IMG/VR virus record: IMGVR_UViG_3300023199_000127
Span: 64,001-128,000 of that record
DNA: 64,000 nucleotides
Source: a virus
Strand: one strand, 5' to 3'
This document shows positions 4,919-57,710 of this stretch, piece after piece (the first letter of the stretch is position 1; each line of letters begins with the position of its first letter). The translations under genes and the position numbers were made by a program. The notes below the pieces were generated by a model. That model did not search any database. It was given only the letters and a program-made list of their open reading frames with translations, and was not told the DNA's origin.

Positions 4919-5712
4919 TGCCCTCTTCTATTGAGTTCGATAGCGTTTACGACTTTGCAGGCCTTAGAGTGCACTGCAATGCTGAGCGCCGGGCTCGGAA
5001 CGGCGCTACTGATGGTGCCGATGTCCTGAACGTCCTGAACAATGTAGATAGAGGTCCTGATTGGACAGACGCGAACACTCCTACATGGCATGACAATCAG
5101 CTGAATGGCGAGCCGATCTTTAGGTTTGGTTCAAATGAAGGATTCACTGAAGCACTGGGAGATGGCAATCGCCAAGAAGAGCTGCACCCTCTGGTAGATG
5201 ACTGGATCCAGTGGATGTATGAAGGCCCCATTCTGGTGATGACAGTGATGCGACAGACCGGGGACTTCTCCGTGCAGCGGAACTGGTTTGGTTTCGGGGC
5301 TAGTCTTGGTTCTGGCTGGAACCTGCAGACCAATACCTCCACCCAGTTTGTTGCTGAATGGAGTGATGGCTCTAGTGACTATACACAGGTTCTAACACCC
5401 ACCCCGGTACAGAATGACTGGTACATCTGCATGTGGTCATGGGATGGTGAGACGGACAGCCAATTCAGGATTGGGCTCAACTCCTTCTACGAAGATGCAG
5501 ATTTGGTGGACTTGAGCTCGCAAAACTTCTTGGCCGAGGGCGCTGGTGGATATCCCTACGGGCCGTGGCAATTTGGCCAAGCGTGGGCTAATAACATAGA
5601 TGCTGGTGAATGTGCTATGTGGGCTTTCTGGCGTGGTATTGAAGCTAATGAAAAGGCATGGGATGGCTTGCTGCGCTATGCTGGCACCAAGTACGACATC
5701 TCTCTTTCGTAA
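4918..5712 (+). CDS. ConA/LamG-like jelly-roll virion protein
   Basis: Start moved to the ATG overlapping the upstream TAA (MPSSIEF..). TPTWHDNQLNGEPIFRF, DWYICMWSWDG, FRIGLN, WQFG pattern. Confidence 0.6.
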   Translation: MPSSIEFDSVYDFAGLRVHCNAERRARNGATDGADVLNVLNNVDRGPDWTDANTPTWHDNQLNGEPIFRFGSNEGFTEALGDGNRQEELHPLVDDWIQWMYEGPILVMTVMRQTGDFSVQRNWFGFGASLGSGWNLQTNTSTQFVAEWSDGSSDYTQVLTPTPVQNDWYICMWSWDGETDSQFRIGLNSFYEDADLVDLSSQNFLAEGAGGYPYGPWQFGQAWANNIDAGECAMWAFWRGIEANEKAWDGLLRYAGTKYDISLS

Positions 5713-5969
5713 TGATTATCGTCCAATTCAATGAACTCTTCCCCGAGGGTCATCCGCTTAGCCTAGTGGAACTGCCGGATCTTCGTGGAAAGTATATGCC
5801 GTTTGACAACGAAGGAGATCTGGCGCCCACTAAGGGCGCCGGCGCACATGTTGGGGGCTTTACAGGTTGCCCAAAATGTGGAGAATGGGTACTGATTACC
5901 CTCGAGCAACGCCACGGGCAGCCTATCAAGTGCTCTTGTGGTGAGGAGTTCAGCCTGAATGACCTTTAA
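5712..5969 (+). CDS. Small zinc-ribbon protein (85 aa)
   Basis: TAATG-coupled ATG at 5712; CPKC...CSCG. Confidence 0.6.
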   Translation: MIIVQFNELFPEGHPLSLVELPDLRGKYMPFDNEGDLAPTKGAGAHVGGFTGCPKCGEWVLITLEQRHGQPIKCSCGEEFSLNDL

Positions 5970-8900
5970 GCCCCCGGACGGGAAAACGTCCATTGAGAAG
6001 ATTGAAGACAGCCAGGTTCAAGGCTTTGTCTTCAGCGATCGCACCAAGCAGGGTGTGCAGGGCGGCTCCGTGCGCCTCCTCCCGCAGCTGACTGGTAACT
6101 TCCAGGCGATCGGGGCTAAGTGGCCGGTGGTCGCAAGCTGGGATCAGCAGGAAGAGTTCCCGGCTGACATCCCCAACTCCGTTGAGACCCGATGGGACGC
6201 GAACCATGATCCCGAGTTCGCAGTCTTCTCCGGCTACCTGAAACTGAACCCTACTGGACAGGCACTATTCCTCGAGCAGTCTGGGACCGGTGTCAATGGC
6301 ACCAAGTTCTCTGACGTAAGCCCCATCATTGGATACACCCTGCAGTTCAGGGCACAGGTTCTGAATCACGCTACTGGTGATGCCGTGCAGGGCGCTATGC
6401 TCCTGTTTGATGACGGATCCAAGCACGATGTGCTTCGACTGCGCAGTGATGGTGTGTACCTGGAATCCAATGAAGCTCTTGGCGTCGTGACGGATATGAA
6501 ATCCTCACCCAAGGATGTACGTCTCACTGTTCGTGGTGACGACTTCTGGTTGTGGGTCGAGGGTAACGACGGTGTATATGCAGAGAATGGATTGACTCAG
6601 GACTCCGCCACAGGAGCCACGAAGAAGCTTCTTCTTGGCTCCACTGGCGATGTGACTGCTGATCTGCGGATGGACTATCTGTATCAGAAGCACGAGGCCA
6701 TCACAGATGTGCCCGATTCGCTCGATACCGGGTTCGGATTCTCTACGGATTTGCAGAGCACGCGACTCCCGGCCTTCTATCCCAAGAGGTATGTGGATAG
6801 ATTCAACAAGGTTTTGGTGGACACGTCACATGGCGAGAGTGAGATCCAGTTTGAGTCCCCCTACCTCTTCAGTGAAGACTTCGACTCCAAGACGGACAAC
6901 ATAGACCTGCTCGTTATCGAGCCCACTATCTGGAGCGATGTCGCCGGTCCGAGTACAGGCAGTGGTGGCCTGAACGTTGACTTCGACGGGAGCGATGGTG
7001 TGCTGTGGTCTTCCAACCAGTATGTGCGATTCATCGGACATGTTGGAGAGTTGCGCGAGGACCATTATTTCCAGATCACCTATGGACGTGTGCGTACTGG
7101 TGACGGAAGCTTTATCGACAATGGCACCGATCGGTTCGCGAATAACATCCTTATGAAGGATGATGGATCCAGTCGCTACTACTATAGGATCGACTGGCAG
7201 GATCTGACTTCCTTTGCTGGTATCTCTCTGTTTATCTACAAGATTGACAGGACTACCAGCACTGCTTCGCTGAAGGCTTCGCAGTCCTGGACGTCTGGTG
7301 CTGATATTACTACCTACCGTCCGGACGATGGGAAGAAGATTCGTGTAGAGATCCGTGGTCGCGTGATCTCTGTGTACCTGGATGTCTTGGATGGGAATGG
7401 GCTGGTGAAACAGCTCGAATGGGAAGACACCGAGACTAGCACACTGCCGCCCAGCGATGGTGACCCTGGTCTATGGCTGGGGCCCCGACTGACAGGTGGT
7501 GGACAGTCCACGATTCGTGACCTGGAAGTTGGTAACTTCGAAGGAGGCGGTAGTAGTACCGTCACTGGCACTACAAGACTGAAGATCGAGAAGTCCACTG
7601 ACGGAGGCCAGACGTGGGGTCTCGCCAAGAGCGTCAGCATCACCTCCATTCCCCGGCAGGAAGTGAGCCTTAGCGATATTGCTATTGATGGTCTGGCAAA
7701 GGATGCACTGCGTTTCACGGTTGAGCAGTCCAGCCCCGGTGGCCTTGCAGAGGCCATCCGGGTAGACCAGCTCACCGTTAAGACGGATTTCAAGGAACCC
7801 TCCCTCGATGTCTTCCCGTGCTGGGGACCGAAGGTGGGAGGTACCAATGTGGCCCTCACGATCAAGGAAGGCGCCAAGGCACTATGTGCTACGCCTCCCA
7901 CAGAAAGTGATCACACCAAGATGTACACCGAGGACAGCACCGATACTGGTGTCGCCTCGATTTATGGTTCCAGTATGGCTGCCCCTCCTTACGGCAACGT
8001 GTACGGTTCGCCAACAGTTATTGGGGCACCTTCTCTTGGCCTCAGTACTGTAGAGGTGCCCATCGCAGACGAGGCTGGATATAGCAGCAAGTCTGCTCAG
8101 GAAGTCTGGGGCAACTCCGGTGATGGTGTCACCTATACCCTGAGTCCTCCGGGCTCTGGTAACCAGCTGTTGCGTGGGTACCTGGAGGTACTGAAGGGTG
8201 CTGCGTATCTGCAGGCCAACACTGGCCAGCAGCATGTGTTCCGCAACGACACCTACCAAGACACCCGACGAGTTGGCCTGGTGTTCTCTGGTGGCTCACT
8301 CGAGCTCATTGCTGCAGCATTCGAAGCTGACTCGCACTTCCGTCTGCACCTCGAGAACATGGCTGAGCTTACGCTCACCGGCACCTCTACTGGTGCCGCT
8401 GATGCACACCGTAGCCTGGAGACCTGGACCATTGTCGACGGTCTCAATACGGAGGGAGATACCTTGCTCTTGTCCACCAAGAGCACTGGTGAAGGACTTC
8501 AGCTGGGTCTAAATGCCGATGGTAGGCCGTTCATTCGCGTCTCGGATGGCACCACGGAAGAGGCACTGACTGGTGAGTTCCCTCTGACTATGGGGGATCT
8601 ACACCATGTGGCCGGCGGCATCGTGCAGTATCCTGATAGAGACGCACTAGAAATTTTGCTGAATGGAGAGATCTGTGGCCAAAAAGAATCCCAAGTCCAA
8701 TTCGCAGCGTACGGCGACGGGGAACAAGTCCAAGTCGCGCAAGGGGCCGACCCCGGATCAGCTGATTCCGCGGGAGCGGTCCGACTTGCGGAAGGACGGA
8801 CCCGGGCACAAGCTCCCGACTCGGAACGAAGGGTAGTCGAGCTTGGTATTGCTGACCCGTTCTTCGGGTTGGATACCAACTGGCCCCTACGCGATAGCAC

Positions 8901-10443
8901 CCGACTCCTTGCTCACATGGATGCCCAGCAGGGCTCCATTGTGGACAAGTCCCTGTACGGCCACTACCCGGTCGTCCTAGAGTCCAAGCGACGCAACACT
9001 GTCCGCGGTGCCGATGGGTACTTCGGGCGCTCTCTGTACGTCGTTGGCGCCCAGGGTGGAGCTCAGATCGCCCAGAAGGGCGAGCTGGAGCCTAACACCG
9101 GCATCACTATCTCCTTCTTCACCAAGGCCTATGCCAACCCCAGTGCTGACTCCAGTGTCTGGGCCCATGGCACCGGCCTGGATGTCGCTATCGACACTGA
9201 GGGCCAGCTCAAGGTCACGGTGCCGGGCGGTGAACATATCCATACCGGGCAGCTGCTGGGCGTCAACAAGTGGCGTCCTGCCTGGGTGCAGCTGGACGTC
9301 ACGGGCAACCTCGTTCGGACCAGGGTCGGTACTGGCGCCTGGGAAGAGAGCTCCATGTCGCTGGGTATCCCGGATCTCAGCGACCTGCCGGTGGAGCTCG
9401 GCTTCGGCCTCTGGGGTCTTCTGGATGAGGTTGCCTTCCATCGTGAGCTTCTGGATACCGGCCTGTACGATAGCCTAACCAGTCTCACAGGCGTCAAGAG
9501 CGACCCGAATGAAAATGTGATCTGGGGTGGCAGCTCGTTGGCAGCAGCCAACGTGCGCCACACCTATGTGAATCGCAAGCACATTCTGACGCCCACCGGA
9601 GCTGTTGGGGGTGTCTCGGTTGGCGTGGAGGTATATGGAAAGACCTGGCCGGCGGAGTGTGCGTTCAAGTACACCGATATCTACAGTCGGGAAATCGACG
9701 CATCGAAGTATGAGAGCCAGGCATGTAAGACCAAGGGCCCCTTCCGGATTGGTAATCGAGTCCCGGATGGCGGTGTGAACCTGGCGTTGCTGGGCGCTCC
9801 CCCGATGAGCGTGCCCAATAACGTGTCCCTAACGGACATGTCTGACCGTGAGGCAGCGAACATCGCCTTCTATAACCAGGGACGATTCATTCAGACGGAT
9901 CCGACGATTACTGGTCAGAACAGCGGCGAGTTCTACTACTCGCCTCAGTTCGATACCAAGGAGGTCTACATCTCGAACCGCTCGGTCATGCGCCGGCAGT
10001 TCAAGCAGCCCGTGCCGCTCTTCTTCAAGTACCTTGTTGGTCGCGGGCGGTTCTATGTCTACCAGCCCGATGCGACCGATGCTACTGATGCCGATCTCAT
10101 CAGGAAATCCATCCAGGTGCAGGACAGACAGGGTCGAACCATCCCGCTCGAGGTTTTCCCCTGGGACATTACCGTCTCCAGGCTGGACTACTACGGTTCG
10201 ACTCTGCCTACCAACACCTTCTCGGTCGTTTTGTATACCGAGCGTATTCCTCTCGGTGAGACTCGATTCGTGGTCTACAATGGTGCTGATGCCCAGGACA
10301 GCTTCAAGACTGTCCCGGGCAAGCGAGAGGTAATCAACCCGGTCCCGATCTTCGAGCTCGATGAGAGCGGGGATCTGACCCGTTTCGAGTTTGATATGAA
10401 TCTGGATACTGGAGGCTTTTATGACCTCCGCATCGTGAGGTAA
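5959..10443 (+). CDS. 1494-aa virion protein with LamG-like domains (tail/baseplate fibre)
   Basis: LHHVAGG..EILLNGE and AHMD..GSIVDKS..GYFGRSL..ITISFF..LLDEVAF LamG-type patterns. Confidence 0.65.
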   Translation: MTFKPPDGKTSIEKIEDSQVQGFVFSDRTKQGVQGGSVRLLPQLTGNFQAIGAKWPVVASWDQQEEFPADIPNSVETRWDANHDPEFAVFSGYLKLNPTGQALFLEQSGTGVNGTKFSDVSPIIGYTLQFRAQVLNHATGDAVQGAMLLFDDGSKHDVLRLRSDGVYLESNEALGVVTDMKSSPKDVRLTVRGDDFWLWVEGNDGVYAENGLTQDSATGATKKLLLGSTGDVTADLRMDYLYQKHEAITDVPDSLDTGFGFSTDLQSTRLPAFYPKRYVDRFNKVLVDTSHGESEIQFESPYLFSEDFDSKTDNIDLLVIEPTIWSDVAGPSTGSGGLNVDFDGSDGVLWSSNQYVRFIGHVGELREDHYFQITYGRVRTGDGSFIDNGTDRFANNILMKDDGSSRYYYRIDWQDLTSFAGISLFIYKIDRTTSTASLKASQSWTSGADITTYRPDDGKKIRVEIRGRVISVYLDVLDGNGLVKQLEWEDTETSTLPPSDGDPGLWLGPRLTGGGQSTIRDLEVGNFEGGGSSTVTGTTRLKIEKSTDGGQTWGLAKSVSITSIPRQEVSLSDIAIDGLAKDALRFTVEQSSPGGLAEAIRVDQLTVKTDFKEPSLDVFPCWGPKVGGTNVALTIKEGAKALCATPPTESDHTKMYTEDSTDTGVASIYGSSMAAPPYGNVYGSPTVIGAPSLGLSTVEVPIADEAGYSSKSAQEVWGNSGDGVTYTLSPPGSGNQLLRGYLEVLKGAAYLQANTGQQHVFRNDTYQDTRRVGLVFSGGSLELIAAAFEADSHFRLHLENMAELTLTGTSTGAADAHRSLETWTIVDGLNTEGDTLLLSTKSTGEGLQLGLNADGRPFIRVSDGTTEEALTGEFPLTMGDLHHVAGGIVQYPDRDALEILLNGEICGQKESQVQFAAYGDGEQVQVAQGADPGSADSAGAVRLAEGRTRAQAPDSERRVVELGIADPFFGLDTNWPLRDSTRLLAHMDAQQGSIVDKSLYGHYPVVLESKRRNTVRGADGYFGRSLYVVGAQGGAQIAQKGELEPNTGITISFFTKAYANPSADSSVWAHGTGLDVAIDTEGQLKVTVPGGEHIHTGQLLGVNKWRPAWVQLDVTGNLVRTRVGTGAWEESSMSLGIPDLSDLPVELGFGLWGLLDEVAFHRELLDTGLYDSLTSLTGVKSDPNENVIWGGSSLAAANVRHTYVNRKHILTPTGAVGGVSVGVEVYGKTWPAECAFKYTDIYSREIDASKYESQACKTKGPFRIGNRVPDGGVNLALLGAPPMSVPNNVSLTDMSDREAANIAFYNQGRFIQTDPTITGQNSGEFYYSPQFDTKEVYISNRSVMRRQFKQPVPLFFKYLVGRGRFYVYQPDATDATDADLIRKSIQVQDRQGRTIPLEVFPWDITVSRLDYYGSTLPTNTFSVVLYTERIPLGETRFVVYNGADAQDSFKTVPGKREVINPVPIFELDESGDLTRFEFDMNLDTGGFYDLRIVR
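8675..8836 (+). CDS. Overprinted 53-aa basic protein nested in the +1 frame of the 1494-aa gene
   Basis: GGAG (8665-8668), 6 nt, GTG; MAKKNPKSNSQRTATGNKSKSRKGPTPDQLIPRERSDLRKDGPGHKLPTRNEG*. The host frame switches to CAA/GAA codons over this span. Confidence 0.6.
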   Translation: MAKKNPKSNSQRTATGNKSKSRKGPTPDQLIPRERSDLRKDGPGHKLPTRNEG

Positions 10444-11018: not shown

Positions 11019-12437
11019 ATGGTTGCCGAGTACAATAGCGCCTTTAACGAGGACTTCTTCATTGAGACCGCTGGCTCCGGATCAGGAGGTGGTGCAGGTG
11101 GTGCAGGTGGTGACTCAGGCTCTGAAGAGGCACCGTCCTCAGGTGGGTCAATTAGTGGTGGTAGCACGCCGGCCGTCGGAAGTACACCCACTGGCTTCGT
11201 CCCCGACTTTCTGCTGGAAAGTCCTGCCTTCAACCGTGCTCCTGCACTCGCGATCTACACGCCCAACGACGATATCCAGACTACAGATATCGTCTTGACC
11301 TCCGCTAAGGTGCGCCTCTGGGAGAGTCCTACCTGGCATGAGGTTAACTATGTCGGGCGCTCCATCAAAGAGGTAGTGGAAGAGATTAACCAGAGCTCAC
11401 AGCGATACTTCGCTGTCGAGCTCAATCAGTTGCCTGAGCTGGTCAGTAACGATTTGTTCCTGAATGATGGGGACTTCTCCCCCGACCTTGGTGCTATCGT
11501 TCGACTCAATGGTCACTCGTTCTCCTACCAGACCCAGACTCGCCTCAGGCTTCTGGCCCCGTATGAGGATGATCGTAGAAAGCCGTGGTATGGACGTGTG
11601 TCTGTGGGCGAGGTGGTGAAGGTCTTGAATGGAGTCCGACATGTGTTCCGTGTGCCGGAATACACTGACCAGCCCTGGTCTCACTACTACGGTAAGCCCT
11701 ACGTGGATATTCAGGATGTGCGTCCGGTGTTTGTGGACGGCAGGACTCTACGAGCTCCGCGCCGGCCTCTCTACTGGCTCCACAACAATATCGTCGTCCG
11801 TGTCAATGGCATCGCCCAGCCCTCCAGCATTATCGAGGATGTTGATGTTGAGAACGGCTTCATTTTCCTGGCCACAGAACTAGATCCTGGTGACCCCACG
11901 CTCCTTTCCTTTACCTACAAGGAAACGAGCCTGGTGTACAAGGGAATCAATGTCAATCCTTCGGTGGATCAACTACCTCAGTTCATTGGGCAGCATATCG
12001 TCTACTTCCTACGGCCTCAGGGTGATTCCCTCGGCCGTACCTGGGAGGAGTGTGTTTTCCATAGCGTGGCTCCTACGCTGGATGGTGCTATCTCTCAGAT
12101 CGAGGTCAGCGATGATGAGCCGGTGCTCCTCCTGGGAGCACTACAGGTTCGTCAGGCCAATGTGGTCGATGACGTGAGCATTACGGACACTAGGACAGTG
12201 GGCGGTGGTCTCAAGGATGATGAGCTCGAGCGAAGCAAGAAGCTCAATCGAGCCATGCAGGCTGTTACCGATCTTGGTAATCTGGATGGGGTCCCGTATC
12301 CTGGGAACGCGGTTGTCCTCGTGGATCTACCGGACTCCGTTCGTACTGCTATGACTAAAGACGAGCTCATGGAACGCATTAAGCGACACATCGCCTTCGG
12401 CGTGGTGCCGCTGGTGAACTTCAGGAGGGCAGACTAG
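11019..12437 (+). CDS. Putative baseplate/virion protein
   Basis: 472 aa; Gly/Ser-rich N-terminal linker; operon context. Confidence 0.55.
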   Translation: MVAEYNSAFNEDFFIETAGSGSGGGAGGAGGDSGSEEAPSSGGSISGGSTPAVGSTPTGFVPDFLLESPAFNRAPALAIYTPNDDIQTTDIVLTSAKVRLWESPTWHEVNYVGRSIKEVVEEINQSSQRYFAVELNQLPELVSNDLFLNDGDFSPDLGAIVRLNGHSFSYQTQTRLRLLAPYEDDRRKPWYGRVSVGEVVKVLNGVRHVFRVPEYTDQPWSHYYGKPYVDIQDVRPVFVDGRTLRAPRRPLYWLHNNIVVRVNGIAQPSSIIEDVDVENGFIFLATELDPGDPTLLSFTYKETSLVYKGINVNPSVDQLPQFIGQHIVYFLRPQGDSLGRTWEECVFHSVAPTLDGAISQIEVSDDEPVLLLGALQVRQANVVDDVSITDTRTVGGGLKDDELERSKKLNRAMQAVTDLGNLDGVPYPGNAVVLVDLPDSVRTAMTKDELMERIKRHIAFGVVPLVNFRRAD

Positions 12438-15022: not shown

Positions 15023-15190
15023 ATGCCCGAACCGAAAAGACGTCAGAAAATGCCCGCGCGAGACAATCGCGACAAGACGAAAATCGTCCGCGAAGCTCAG
15101 AAGGAGTATCGCGAGGGCAAGCAGGACAGAAAAGAATGGCCCGGTGGCCCCAGTCGGGCTCCTGGTGCCCCCGAACCGAAGGGTGGTTAA
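15023..15190 (+). CDS. 55-aa basic protein
   Basis: TAAGGAG SD at 15011-15017; MPEPKRRQKMPARDNRDKTKIVREAQKEYREGKQDRKEWPGGPSRAPGAPEPKGG*. Confidence 0.7.
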   Translation: MPEPKRRQKMPARDNRDKTKIVREAQKEYREGKQDRKEWPGGPSRAPGAPEPKGG

Positions 15191-15191
15191 T

Positions 15192-15257
15192 ATGGCCAAG
15201 AAGAAGGACCGACCCAAGAAAAAGCCCTCCAAGAAGGGCAAGAAGAAGGGCTACTAA
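15192..15257 (+). CDS. 21-aa Lys-rich peptide
   Basis: MAKKKDRPKKKPSKKGKKKGY*; AAG-rich; TAATG overlap with the next ORF. Confidence 0.6.
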   Translation: MAKKKDRPKKKPSKKGKKKGY

Positions 15258-15394
15258 TGCCCAAGGGCAGCAAGGTCGACAAGATCTACCGTGCTCTGCG
15301 CGAAGAGGGTATGTCTCGTGAAAAGGCTGCCCGTATCGCGCAGGACAGAAGTGGTCAGTCACTAAAGACCGGCAAGAAGCCCAAGAAGAAGTAG
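15257..15394 (+). CDS. 45-aa basic helical protein
   Basis: MPKGSKVDKIYRALREEGMSREKAARIAQDRSGQSLKTGKKPKKK*; stop abuts the next ATG. Confidence 0.7.
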   Translation: MPKGSKVDKIYRALREEGMSREKAARIAQDRSGQSLKTGKKPKKK

Positions 15395-26499: not shown

Positions 26500-27666
26500 A
26501 TGGCTACGATACTCACTAATGGGATCATTGCCCGTGCAGAGGCTGACACATGGGCTCATGCATTTCAAAGTCCCAACATCACGCCCTACCAAGACCCCAG
26601 TCTGATCATGGGCAACTTCTTCATTGGCCTGCAATCGACCATATTCTGGAAGTTCACAGGGCACGGCATTCCTCGAGGTGCTCAGATAGAATCTGCTCTC
26701 ATCGACATGGATGCCGCATTCACTAGTGGTGTCGGCACCAAAGCATCTCGCTTTACTATCTCAGACATGTCTGGCCATAGATCAGAGGCGTTGCTCGATA
26801 ACACCTTTGGTCCCGCCTGGAGAGCAATGCTATGGGGAAGGTTTAAGGTCATTCTGCGTAACAGCCCATCCTCTATTATCACTGACACTCTGCCATCTAT
26901 CGCTACGAATGGCGCCTGGGCCATTCGCTGGCAGAACAACTCTGCCGGTGGTGTCATGAACGACCAAATGGCTCAGCGTATCACGCTTGGAGCCTCTCCG
27001 GGTGTCCTTGGATCTGCTCAGCTCCAGCTCAACAGAGTTGGAGCTCCGGCAGGCAACATGCAGGTGCAGATTGCTGCTGTGACGACTGTAAATGGACTCA
27101 CGGTCCCAGGGTCTATCCTGGCAAGCTCCAACACCATCACAGCTTCCAGTATTCCCCTGACGCCAGGCCTTGTGACCTTCAACTTCTCTGGGGCCAACCA
27201 GATCTCGTTGCCGGCGAACACTGATGTGTTCTTGATCCTTCGGTCTACGCTACCCTACAACGTGGACGGAACGAACTTCATTAACTGGCACCAGCAACGA
27301 GCATTCTTTGGAGCGGGTGGTGGCCGACACTATGGCACCGGCGTGGACTTTGACTTCCAGAACTTCCCTGGTGCAGCTGATGTCTACCAGGTGCAATCTG
27401 TAGAAGGCCTTACCCCAACAGTGCCCTGGGATACGCCCCCATTCACGGCTGGCAATACCTACCAAAGCCCTGACCTAACTGCATTGGTTCAACACGCGGT
27501 TAGTAGACCCACATACAACGATGGGGGACCCATCGTTGTATCGTGGATACCAACCAACACGAATAATTTGAACAGACGGATCGCATCATTCAACCACCCA
27601 ACATTGAACTCTGCTGAATTGGTAGTGACCTATCGCCAGCGCCGCATATGGACGATGATCTCATGA
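26500..27666 (+). CDS. Virion-like beta protein (DNRLRE-like termini)
   Basis: IPRGAQIESALI ... SPDLTALVQ..RP ... ELVVTY. Confidence 0.5.
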   Translation: MATILTNGIIARAEADTWAHAFQSPNITPYQDPSLIMGNFFIGLQSTIFWKFTGHGIPRGAQIESALIDMDAAFTSGVGTKASRFTISDMSGHRSEALLDNTFGPAWRAMLWGRFKVILRNSPSSIITDTLPSIATNGAWAIRWQNNSAGGVMNDQMAQRITLGASPGVLGSAQLQLNRVGAPAGNMQVQIAAVTTVNGLTVPGSILASSNTITASSIPLTPGLVTFNFSGANQISLPANTDVFLILRSTLPYNVDGTNFINWHQQRAFFGAGGGRHYGTGVDFDFQNFPGAADVYQVQSVEGLTPTVPWDTPPFTAGNTYQSPDLTALVQHAVSRPTYNDGGPIVVSWIPTNTNNLNRRIASFNHPTLNSAELVVTYRQRRIWTMIS

Positions 27667-48253: not shown

Positions 48254-48549
48254 TACAAACCTCGGTTCTTAATGAACCTGTTTAGTCGATCAATGAATCG
48301 ACACCCATCCTCGAGACGTGTAAACCACACATTCAGAGAACAATACTCTGAGTCGGGGTGCATCTGTTCGTCGATTACACTAGTATCGATGAGCTTATCT
48401 TCCACGTCCCCATTACCATCACAGTCCTCAAAGAGACCATAAGCTGCGCAGGTCCCTATCATGCTTCTCTCAAAGCACCATAGACCACTATCAGACTGCT
48501 CAATGTCTTCATAGGTGAAGACAGGCATCGTTTCATTCTGGTAGTACAT
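48253..48549 (-). CDS. Hypothetical protein
   Basis: 98 aa; TAATG overlaps. Confidence 0.6.
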   Translation of the reverse strand: MYYQNETMPVFTYEDIEQSDSGLWCFERSMIGTCAAYGLFEDCDGNGDVEDKLIDTSVIDEQMHPDSEYCSLNVWFTRLEDGCRFIDRLNRFIKNRGL

Positions 48550-55867: not shown

Positions 55868-56460
55868 ACTTCGGTTTCTCCTTGAGCTTCTTCATGCTCA
55901 TCTATCAAATCGTCCGGTAATGCATCTCCATGAGCGTAGACACTACTACTAATAGTGCCCATCCTCTGGTACATGCGTTCTTCAATCGTTTCTCGTTCTT
56001 TCCCAAGCTTACTAATGAATTTCAGGAAACGCTGGAGACTCAGAACAGTAGGTTGTGCAGTCGACAGGATGTGGATTATGGCACGCAGCCCTACCTGTGC
56101 TCCTACTGCTGCGTATACCATTTCATCTTCACAGTCATCCTCATCGACATGGTCGATGAGGTACCTCACGTCACACTCAAAAATGTCCCAGAGAAGACGG
56201 ACTACGTCAACTATTCTGGGATCATCATTTTGTTCACGTGCATTTTCATAAGCAATGCAAACTGCATTCTCTGCTGCAGCTTGTAACTCACGAGATCTAT
56301 TCAACAAACCCGTTATCGAAGCTCGCAGTTTTTTGGCAACACGTTCATGATCCTGAGCAGACTCAACTAGCAGCATTGCTCGTTGCCACGCTTGGTCTGC
56401 ATCAAGTCCAGTATGCTCTAGATACTCAGGAAGGCCTGCCAGTCCAACACGTTGAGCCAT
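55864..56460 (-). CDS. Hypothetical helical protein
   Basis: 198 aa; coupled on both sides. Confidence 0.6.
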   Translation of the reverse strand: MAQRVGLAGLPEYLEHTGLDADQAWQRAMLLVESAQDHERVAKKLRASITGLLNRSRELQAAAENAVCIAYENAREQNDDPRIVDVVRLLWDIFECDVRYLIDHVDEDDCEDEMVYAAVGAQVGLRAIIHILSTAQPTVLSLQRFLKFISKLGKERETIEERMYQRMGTISSSVYAHGDALPDDLIDEHEEAQGETEV

Positions 56461-57710
56461 TAGAAGGGCGTAGTCTCCTCGGAAGTCTCTGACTCAGGAT
56501 CAAAACCATCCTGTACGCCACCAACTTCCTGGAACTCAGTGAGGTTTCTAATGTCATCGCGAATCATCTCGAGAACCTCCGGGTTCTCTACGATGAACTT
56601 CTTGGCATTGTCTTTGCCTTTGATGCGATTCTGACCCTTACTATCCTCCGGGAAGCCCTTGTACTTGTAGTAGGCACCACCCTGTAGGATTACACCAAGA
56701 GCCATAGCGCTGTTAATAGCTGCAGCATCGGTGTCAAAGCCAAGTCCAAACTGGAAGGGCAGAGCAATCTCATGACCTTCCGTGGCAGACTGTTTGGTCT
56801 TATCGATCTTGATGATGCCATTGTAACCAAGCATCACCTTCTTCTTCTGCCCATCCGGCATGACAATATCGCCCTTGCGATCCTTGTCATATTGTCGTCG
56901 AAGAAATAGTCTCAGGTGGGCAAAGTGCTTCAATGCAGTGCCACCCTTCTGCTGGTAGGACGTACGTCCAGTGGGATTAATGTCCTGATACACATGGCCG
57001 ATGAGAATCTGAACCATCGGATTCTCGAGGCCACCAAGCTTAAGGTTAGCAATACCCAGGAACTTACTGAGCACCTTCGGCAAAGCGGCTACCGTATCAG
57101 CGTGTACAGTCTTCGCCACGCCATCCTGGCCAATCTTGGCAGGCTTACTCTGGATCTCCTGCGAGGTGACAAAGCCACCAAGAGAGTCGACCACGTAGCC
57201 AACAAATGCACCAGTCTCACCAAGGTCCAGCAGCATCTGTACAAGATCTTCCATGATGGCAGTGCCAGGCAGAAGCACCAGACGAGTCAAGTCGATGCCA
57301 ATATGCTCAGCATACGACTTGTCGAAAGAGTTCTCCGTATCCACCCAGATCCAGTCACCGATCTCGTTGTTCTGCATCCAGTGAGCAATGATCTGCATGA
57401 TCAAAGTGGTCTTGCCGGCGCCGGGGTTACCGAACACCGTTGTGAACTTGCCCTTCGGCAAACCGCCACCGCTAAGTCTATCAAGCTCCGGGAACGGAGT
57501 GCCAACGCGCTCGTACTCCACGAAACGCTTCATTGACTCATCGTTCGCGTAGCCCACATGTGCGCGCGGGTATTGCTCCTGCAACTTGTTCATAAGAAGC
57601 TTCGCTTTACGCTGCTTATTCGCCTGCTCTTTCTTTAGATCAGGTTGAATAGTTAGTGCCGCCGCCTTTTTAGTGGCCTTCTTCTTCGAGGCCTTCTTCT
57701 TAGCTGCCAT
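56460..57710 (-). CDS. recA: RecA/UvsX-like recombinase
   Basis: GAGG SD; ELDRLSGGGLPKGK, GNPGAGKTT, DTENSFD, VVDS, GGTALKHFA. Confidence 0.92.
   Translation of the reverse strand: MAAKKKASKKKATKKAAALTIQPDLKKEQANKQRKAKLLMNKLQEQYPRAHVGYANDESMKRFVEYERVGTPFPELDRLSGGGLPKGKFTTVFGNPGAGKTTLIMQIIAHWMQNNEIGDWIWVDTENSFDKSYAEHIGIDLTRLVLLPGTAIMEDLVQMLLDLGETGAFVGYVVDSLGGFVTSQEIQSKPAKIGQDGVAKTVHADTVAALPKVLSKFLGIANLKLGGLENPMVQILIGHVYQDINPTGRTSYQQKGGTALKHFAHLRLFLRRQYDKDRKGDIVMPDGQKKKVMLGYNGIIKIDKTKQSATEGHEIALPFQFGLGFDTDAAAINSAMALGVILQGGAYYKYKGFPEDSKGQNRIKGKDNAKKFIVENPEVLEMIRDDIRNLTEFQEVGGVQDGFDPESETSEETTPF

Follow-up and report, generated by a model that had tools for sequence, protein, structure and literature searches.

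A probable small basic gene overprinted in the +1 frame of a LamG-domain gene in an uncultured 181-kb phage

The host gene and its embedded reading frame

The 64,000-nucleotide stretch of DNA analysed here (the window) comprises positions 64001-128000 of a 180,792-bp virus record, IMGVR_UViG_3300023199_000127, which is 93% complete by CheckV. The list of open reading frames (ORFs) places a gene of 1494 codons on the plus strand at 5959..10443 (frame 0), and a short ORF in the +1 frame of this host gene is the subject of the present study. Residues 817-933 of the host protein match the Pfam family PF13385 (Laminin_G_3, E=6.8e-10), a LamG / concanavalin-like domain, and the neighbours of the gene match PHROG 'virion structural protein' families. 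On the basis of these matches, the host gene is predicted to encode a large, LamG / concanavalin-like domain-containing protein within a virion-structural gene block.

The embedded ORF spans 8675..8836 on the plus strand, starting with GTG and running for 53 codons to a TAG stop at 8834-8836. A TGA at 8660..8662 closes the +1 frame just upstream, and a Shine-Dalgarno-like GGAG at 8665..8668 precedes the GTG by 6 nucleotides (nt). An earlier note on this DNA, made from the letters alone, had drawn attention to the open 53-codon frame, to the spacing of its GGAG and GTG and to the use of AAG for 7 of its 8 Lys codons, and each of these features is present in the sequence. GGAG or GAGG is found 5-9 nt before ATG or GTG starts in 30 of 123 crudely called ORFs of the phage, against an expectation of about 11%. 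An ATG at 8663, which would give a 57-codon ORF, was rejected as the start since it lacks both a Shine-Dalgarno sequence and an equivalent in a homologue (described below), and is followed by an AGA codon.

Synonymous codon choice in the host frame is strongly skewed across this ORF. The host gene as a whole favours codons ending in G (CAA 9 / CAG 53, GAA 26 / GAG 53, AAA 6 / AAG 49), and genome-wide CAA accounts for 16% of Gln codons and GAA for 29% of Glu codons. Over 8680-8832, however, all seven Gln codons are CAA and all four Glu codons are GAA, as the earlier note had reported; the anomalous host-frame stretch (8680..8826, plus strand) contains 7 CAA, 4 GAA and 1 AAA, with CAG, GAG and AAG all at zero. 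Thus seven of the nine CAA codons in the gene fall within 130 nt (8680-8809), and just 2 CAA are included among the other 55 Gln codons. A recount also bore out that the limits of the anomaly are those of the ORF, the only GAG, at 8668, preceding the GTG.

The whole 181-kb genome was scanned for codon anomalies in 43,011 segments of 53 codons drawn from the 123 crudely called ORFs. With a synonymous-codon z of -7.4 (12 CAA/GAA/AAA versus 0 CAG/GAG/AAG), the segment at 8680 ranks third of the 43,011, and the two stretches that score as low or lower appear to be artefacts of crude ORF calling. The codon anomaly at 8680 is therefore real, and far beyond chance. A low-GC (guanine plus cytosine) insert was rejected as its cause, as the segment is not AT-rich, and avoidance of CCWGG sites was also rejected because, by eye, CAG in place of CAA would create such a site at just 2 of the 7 codons. 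Elsewhere in the window, the most codon-anomalous 53-codon stretch of the genome lies at 48263-48421 (z=-9.3); with a GC content of only 45% and an implausible-looking translation, it is likely to reflect a long ORF that is spurious, or else DNA that is non-coding or foreign, and not a gene. Strongly atypical synonymous codons were also seen within long ORFs at 56025-56500 and 27463-27620 (z -6.1 to -6.5).

We considered what the skewed codons do to the +1 frame. A third-position A in a host codon turns AGG or AGY in the +1 frame into AAG (Lys) or AAY (Asn). When the host protein is recoded at random with synonymous codons, 7.0 AGR codons (AGG/AGA) are expected in the +1 frame, where none is observed (P=5e-5), and 1.55 Lys codons, where there are 8. 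It follows that the unusual choices in the host frame are precisely the ones that change AGG/AGY to AAG/AAY in the embedded frame. The +1-frame coding log-odds of the ORF is +14.3, compared with a mean of -31 (standard deviation 12.3) across all +1 segments of the genome, and the only higher values come from crude ORFs called in the wrong frame around 172-177 kb of the genome. In that region, which is outside the window, three crude long ORFs on the minus strand are mis-framed, their +1 frame being far better as coding sequence, and an automatic annotation that takes the longest ORF would be wrong there.

Comparison with a close relative

The only close relative that we found is P0001, a protein of 1469 residues that is 44% identical to the host protein, is colinear with it over its full length and is encoded on three nearly identical Logan contigs (L001-L003). 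Further close relatives were sought without success: there was no phage GenBank blastn match, and beyond P0001 none was recovered in IMG/VR scans (by protein, by alignment and with two degenerate DNA patterns), in scans of JGI metagenomes and GTDB genomes, or in a word-indexed protein search for shorter fragments. An exhaustive representative search returned the fragments P0002 (56% identical) and P0003, neither of which spans the ORF region.

Contig L001 has the same arrangement at 5117-5275, where a TAA abutting the start codon closes the +1 frame, GGAG stands 6 nt before ATG-GCC, a spacing equal to that in the window, and 52 codons end at a stop formed from the host codons GTA-GTC. The start and stop positions of the two ORFs are aligned and neither ORF contains an internal stop. 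The start codon has been kept despite a change of host residue, TGT (Cys) giving GTG in the window and AAT (Asn) giving ATG in P0001. The earlier note had stated in advance that +1 stops and free synonymous sites in homologues would refute its proposal; the close homologue has no internal +1 stop, and the synonymous sites are constrained, as follows.

Of the 18 overlap sites where the two host proteins share a residue, 17 also share the codon, compared with 281 of 629 (45%) elsewhere in the gene (binomial p=1.2e-5). A sliding scan of codon identity reaches 17/18 once, at codons 906-959, which correspond to the ORF, and many of the codons common to both phages in the overlap are rare ones (GGA, GGG, GAA, GTA). 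Outside the edges of the ORF, 3 of 3 codons after the stop differ synonymously, as do 2 of the 3 identical-residue codons before the start. Differences at host codon positions 1/2/3 number 28/19/21 of 52 in the overlap and 579/471/846 of 1394 elsewhere, and the excess of first- over third-position change peaks at codons 902-911. Since the third base of a +1 codon is the first base of a host codon, this is the periodicity expected of a +1 frame under selection.

Host-silent differences that alter the +1 residue have a rate of 0.42 per site within the overlap, lower than in the two flanks (0.74 and 0.65). For +1-silent differences that alter the host residue, the rate is 0.43 per site, against 0.42 and 0.39. 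The similarity of the two rates within the overlap (0.42 and 0.43) suggests that both frames are about equally constrained, and the sequence comparison shows host-silent changes to be suppressed, within the exact ORF bounds, to the level of amino-acid-changing ones.

The peptides predicted from the two +1 frames are identical at 23 of 53 residues, where independent synonymous resampling gives 9.1 ± 2.5 (maximum 20 in 20,000 trials). The identical blocks are M-A, R-T-A-x-G, S-R-K-G-P and L-P-T-R-N-E. Host-frame identity over the overlap is 17/52, below the gene mean of 46%, and the difference between +1 and host identity has its gene-wide maximum at the ORF, the only place where +1 identity exceeds that of the host frame. 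Nine further stretches of the host gene with no +1 stop (47-166 codons) served as controls; their codon identity is 20-61%, and seven of them carry 1-5 stops in the homologue. The stretches at window positions 6092-6241 and 6656-6904 are +1 stop-free in the homologue too, but have baseline codon identity (8/23 and 15/36), and so the sequences give no sign of a second embedded gene at either place.

Weighing the evidence for an overprinted gene

These results suggest that 8675-8836 probably encodes a genuine protein, its gene being overprinted (+1 frame) where the first LamG domain of the host protein ends. The central proposal of the earlier note, a dual-coded gene for a small basic protein that starts at a GTG preceded by a Shine-Dalgarno sequence of its own, is strongly supported by the comparative sequence tests. 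Under this interpretation ribosomes would start internally at the Shine-Dalgarno/GTG site on the late structural mRNA, and the product of this internal start would be a 53-residue, very basic and intrinsically disordered peptide.

Several points nevertheless weigh against this conclusion. The individual signals of a gene are weak when taken singly. The GGAG at 8665-8668 arises from the conserved host codons GGA-GAG, which encode the Gly-Glu of an N-G-E motif, and therefore comes free with that motif. An open +1 frame is unremarkable alone, being retained in 69% of random synonymous recodings of the window's host protein (45-69% over both host proteins), a start codon appears at the site in 49% (40-49% over both), and several longer +1 stop-free stretches exist in the host gene. 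What is unusual about the locus is its codon choice, its conserved boundaries and its conserved synonymous sites. The comparative evidence, moreover, comes from two lineages, so that every comparative statistic given above is one pairwise comparison. In the homologue the codon anomaly is modest (GAA at 4/4; AGR-free at P=0.027), and the minimum-energy fold pairs the start region, which is rich in GC. The window sequence occurs in four near-identical DNA runs from one study and in no RNA run; contigs covering the ORF from these runs show 0 differences, where only about one would be expected. Finally, the peptide has no relatives, family match or predicted fold in the searches and model described below, and its function is a guess from composition.

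It is unlikely that the ORF has no function and is a by-product of the composition of a Gly/Ala/Glu/Gln-rich loop, with the features shared by the two phages due to chance or mutational bias. The open frame (45-69%) and the start are each likely given the host proteins, alternative-frame ORFs are common in the host gene, and only two lineages are available, all of which fit such an explanation. Chance does not, however, explain 17 identical codons out of 18 (p=1e-5), nor 23 identical +1 residues when none of the 20,000 resamplings exceeded 20, and four sliding statistics, all from a single sequence pair, peak on one and the same 53-codon stretch. A recent recombination patch is excluded, as the nucleotide difference in the overlap (68/156, or 44%) matches the gene average of 45% and the host proteins are less identical there than over the gene as a whole.

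A programmed +1 frameshift, for example on CAA-AAA-G at 8680-8686, would give a truncated isoform of about 960 residues ending in a basic 53-residue tail, and would explain the constraint on the +1 frame equally well. The sequence C-CAA-AAA-G (window 8679-8686) lies two codons past the GTG, and a Lys tRNA could re-pair there in the +1 frame; its run of five A residues, which the centroid fold leaves unpaired, could be slippery. We consider a frameshift very unlikely, since the slippery site is not conserved, the homologue reading GGC-CAC-TCG-CGG at the aligned place, and since the +1 stop that abuts the homologue's ATG leaves almost no room for a shift site. It would also leave unexplained why a Shine-Dalgarno sequence and a start codon are kept at one site in both genomes, the latter surviving a change in the host residue.

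Silent-site conservation alone cannot separate constraint on RNA from constraint on protein, and the silent sites might instead be fixed by RNA structure or by a DNA- or RNA-binding site, with the open +1 frame incidental. There are local inverted repeats, and the minimum-energy fold pairs much of 8735-8800; the earlier note had itself offered hairpins as an alternative cause of the codon bias. This was not supported by our analysis. The folds are ordinary for their composition (z -0.88 and -0.25), no structure is common to both homologues (consensus energy -18.7 kcal/mol, with mostly invariant pairs), no Rfam match was obtained at E<=1, and no promoter-like or terminator-like site was found. 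Nor does a nucleic-acid constraint predict three-base periodicity with most change at the third position of +1 codons, the choice of Lys and Asn codons, the exchanges of K for R and D for E between the peptides, or boundaries that fall on a start and a stop. It is accordingly a highly improbable source of the conservation. An antisense gene can be dismissed almost entirely: two overlapping minus-strand ORFs of 133 and 73 codons (8499..8900 and 8588..8809) do exist, but the 73-codon frame is interrupted by stops in the homologue, the sole antisense frame that stays largely open in both genomes shares its third positions with the host frame and would leave those free to vary, contrary to what is observed, and CAA would there give TTG, a Leu codon used less often than CTG.

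Origin, product and significance

Distant homologues of the host protein, about 30% identical in the representative search and including P0006, P0007, P0010 and P0011, end the LamG domain canonically, with alternating hydrophobic residues. In four distant homologues (loci L005-L008) there are +1 stops at the aligned place. Because of these stops and the canonical LamG end, the host frame is taken as the older of the two, and the embedded frame is confined to the clade of the window phage and P0001; the embedded gene would then have arisen in the common ancestor of these two lineages. A narrower phylogenetic range of one frame is the pattern used to call that frame de novo (PMC8227390). The protein alignment also reveals ten host codons (F-A-A-Y-G-D-G-E-Q-V; 8701..8730, plus strand) that are present in the window phage and P0001 and absent from the distant homologues, which points to an insertion specific to the clade carrying the predicted embedded gene. 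At L005, L006 and L008, the distant relatives of the 1494-residue protein adjoin one to three small PF23140 (Gp80) genes, which were not seen beside the window host gene or in L001.

The earlier note had described the overlapped LamG strands as degenerate. In agreement with this, the Laminin_G_3 match stops early, at residue 933 (profile position 126 of 151), and the hydrophobic pattern of the distant homologues is lost in the LamG end of the window protein. However, an AlphaFold2 model of host residues 798-1047 (m408ebcf58b2c; mean predicted local distance difference test score, pLDDT, 79.8) still builds the sandwich, placing the final LamG strand at host residues about 940-949 (model residues 143-152). 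A host-frame loop of low confidence (8743..8766, plus strand; host residues about 929-936, model 132-139; pLDDT below 50) lies between modelled strands. The strands are therefore altered rather than lost, and the model suggests a LamG domain that is strained, not broken. The cost to the host frame would consist of odd codons (CAA, GAA, GGA, GGG), a 10-residue insertion and a loosened loop, with the LamG sandwich still completed.

The predicted 53-residue peptide has an isoelectric point (pI) of 11.1, a net charge of about +8.6 and a grand average of hydropathicity (GRAVY) of -1.83, with 5 hydrophobic residues and no Cys; the P0001 peptide has a pI of 12.0 and a net charge of +10.5. Its structure model has a predicted template modelling score (pTM) of 0.14 and no secondary structure, with no helix of 4 or more residues. 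No relative was found in a set of 5.8 billion proteins, there was no match to PHROG, and neither the genome nor loci L002 and L005-L008 yielded a paralogue; matches in the ESM Atlas all scored below 0.9 and were to small hydrophilic spore peptides, which are leads only. The peptide has neither the signal peptide with lipobox Cys nor the transmembrane helix of an embedded o-spanin or a phiX174 E-like lysis protein. Its strongly basic, low-complexity and disordered composition is that of protamine / histone-like or internal virion DNA-binding small proteins.

Three free-standing tiny genes encoding Lys/Arg-rich products of 21-67 residues lie in the same late structural block, at window positions 15023-15394 (L001 counterparts 11439-11828), between structural genes of 858 and 529 residues. 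Their position is kept in P0001, with ORFs of 67, 58 and 27 codons. The 45-residue gene (15257-15394), the only one to match any PHROG, matches families of no assigned function (phrog_4974, E=9e-6). The earlier note had taken the embedded peptide to be of the same type as these. This holds for size and for the extremely basic, hydrophilic composition, but no sequence similarity was detectable (best tblastn E=0.22), and the tiny genes, unlike the embedded one, overlap no other gene. The basic composition of the peptide, and the presence of the tiny Lys/Arg-rich genes in the same structural module of both phages, weakly suggest that it might be an accessory protein binding a polyanion, such as the DNA or RNA of the phage, in late infection or inside the virion.

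Genes that lie wholly inside another gene, out of frame, are textbook features of tiny phages, the classical cases being phiX174 E within D and K within A/C, and gene callers forbid such genes by design; to our knowledge, few have been documented in large tailed phages. In lambda, Rz1 is embedded in the +1 frame of Rz (an o-spanin inside an i-spanin) with its own ribosome-binding site, and is a secreted lipoprotein with a signal peptide and lipobox Cys. Like Rz1, the gene proposed here is small, belongs to a tailed phage and is read in the +1 frame from its own, in this case predicted, ribosome-binding site, and the whole of it lies within a larger late gene. It differs from Rz1 in that its peptide has no Cys and few hydrophobic residues, and in that its host gene is a structural LamG gene and not a lysis gene. 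In contrast to the classical overprinted cases, it is found in a 181-kb tailed phage without obvious genome-compression pressure, its product has no membrane segment, and it is known here from sequence alone. Overprinted viral genes that are de novo, out-of-frame and fully embedded have been reviewed by Pavesi 2021 (PMC8227390) and Sabath et al. 2012 (PMC3494269); as in those genes, a new frame of narrower phylogenetic range lies inside an older gene whose silent sites are constrained. Older de novo genes show genome-like codon usage and purifying selection (PMC8227390), and the embedded gene appears to show both.

It is well supported that the locus adds to the known class of overprinted genes and that its product is an orphan. 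The codon signal of one genome sufficed to find the embedded gene, and one distant relative sufficed to test it, which supports codon-anomaly scans as a route to hidden genes in viral metagenomes. If translation were confirmed, an orphan basic protein would join the structural module of an uncultured 181-kb phage, and the locus would provide a dated gene birth, present at 44% host-protein identity and absent at only about 30%, together with the cost carried by the overlapped LamG domain. It is possible, though doubtful, that a gene born de novo in the LamG loop has given rise to a conserved, functional family of basic, disordered orphan proteins whose targets would be DNA or RNA within the virion, or the host during late infection. 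If so, this would be a clean, datable birth by overprinting in a large double-stranded DNA phage, for which the host domain traded fold quality (an insertion, a lost hydrophobic pattern and rare codons), and six-frame constraint scans could reveal many such hidden genes.

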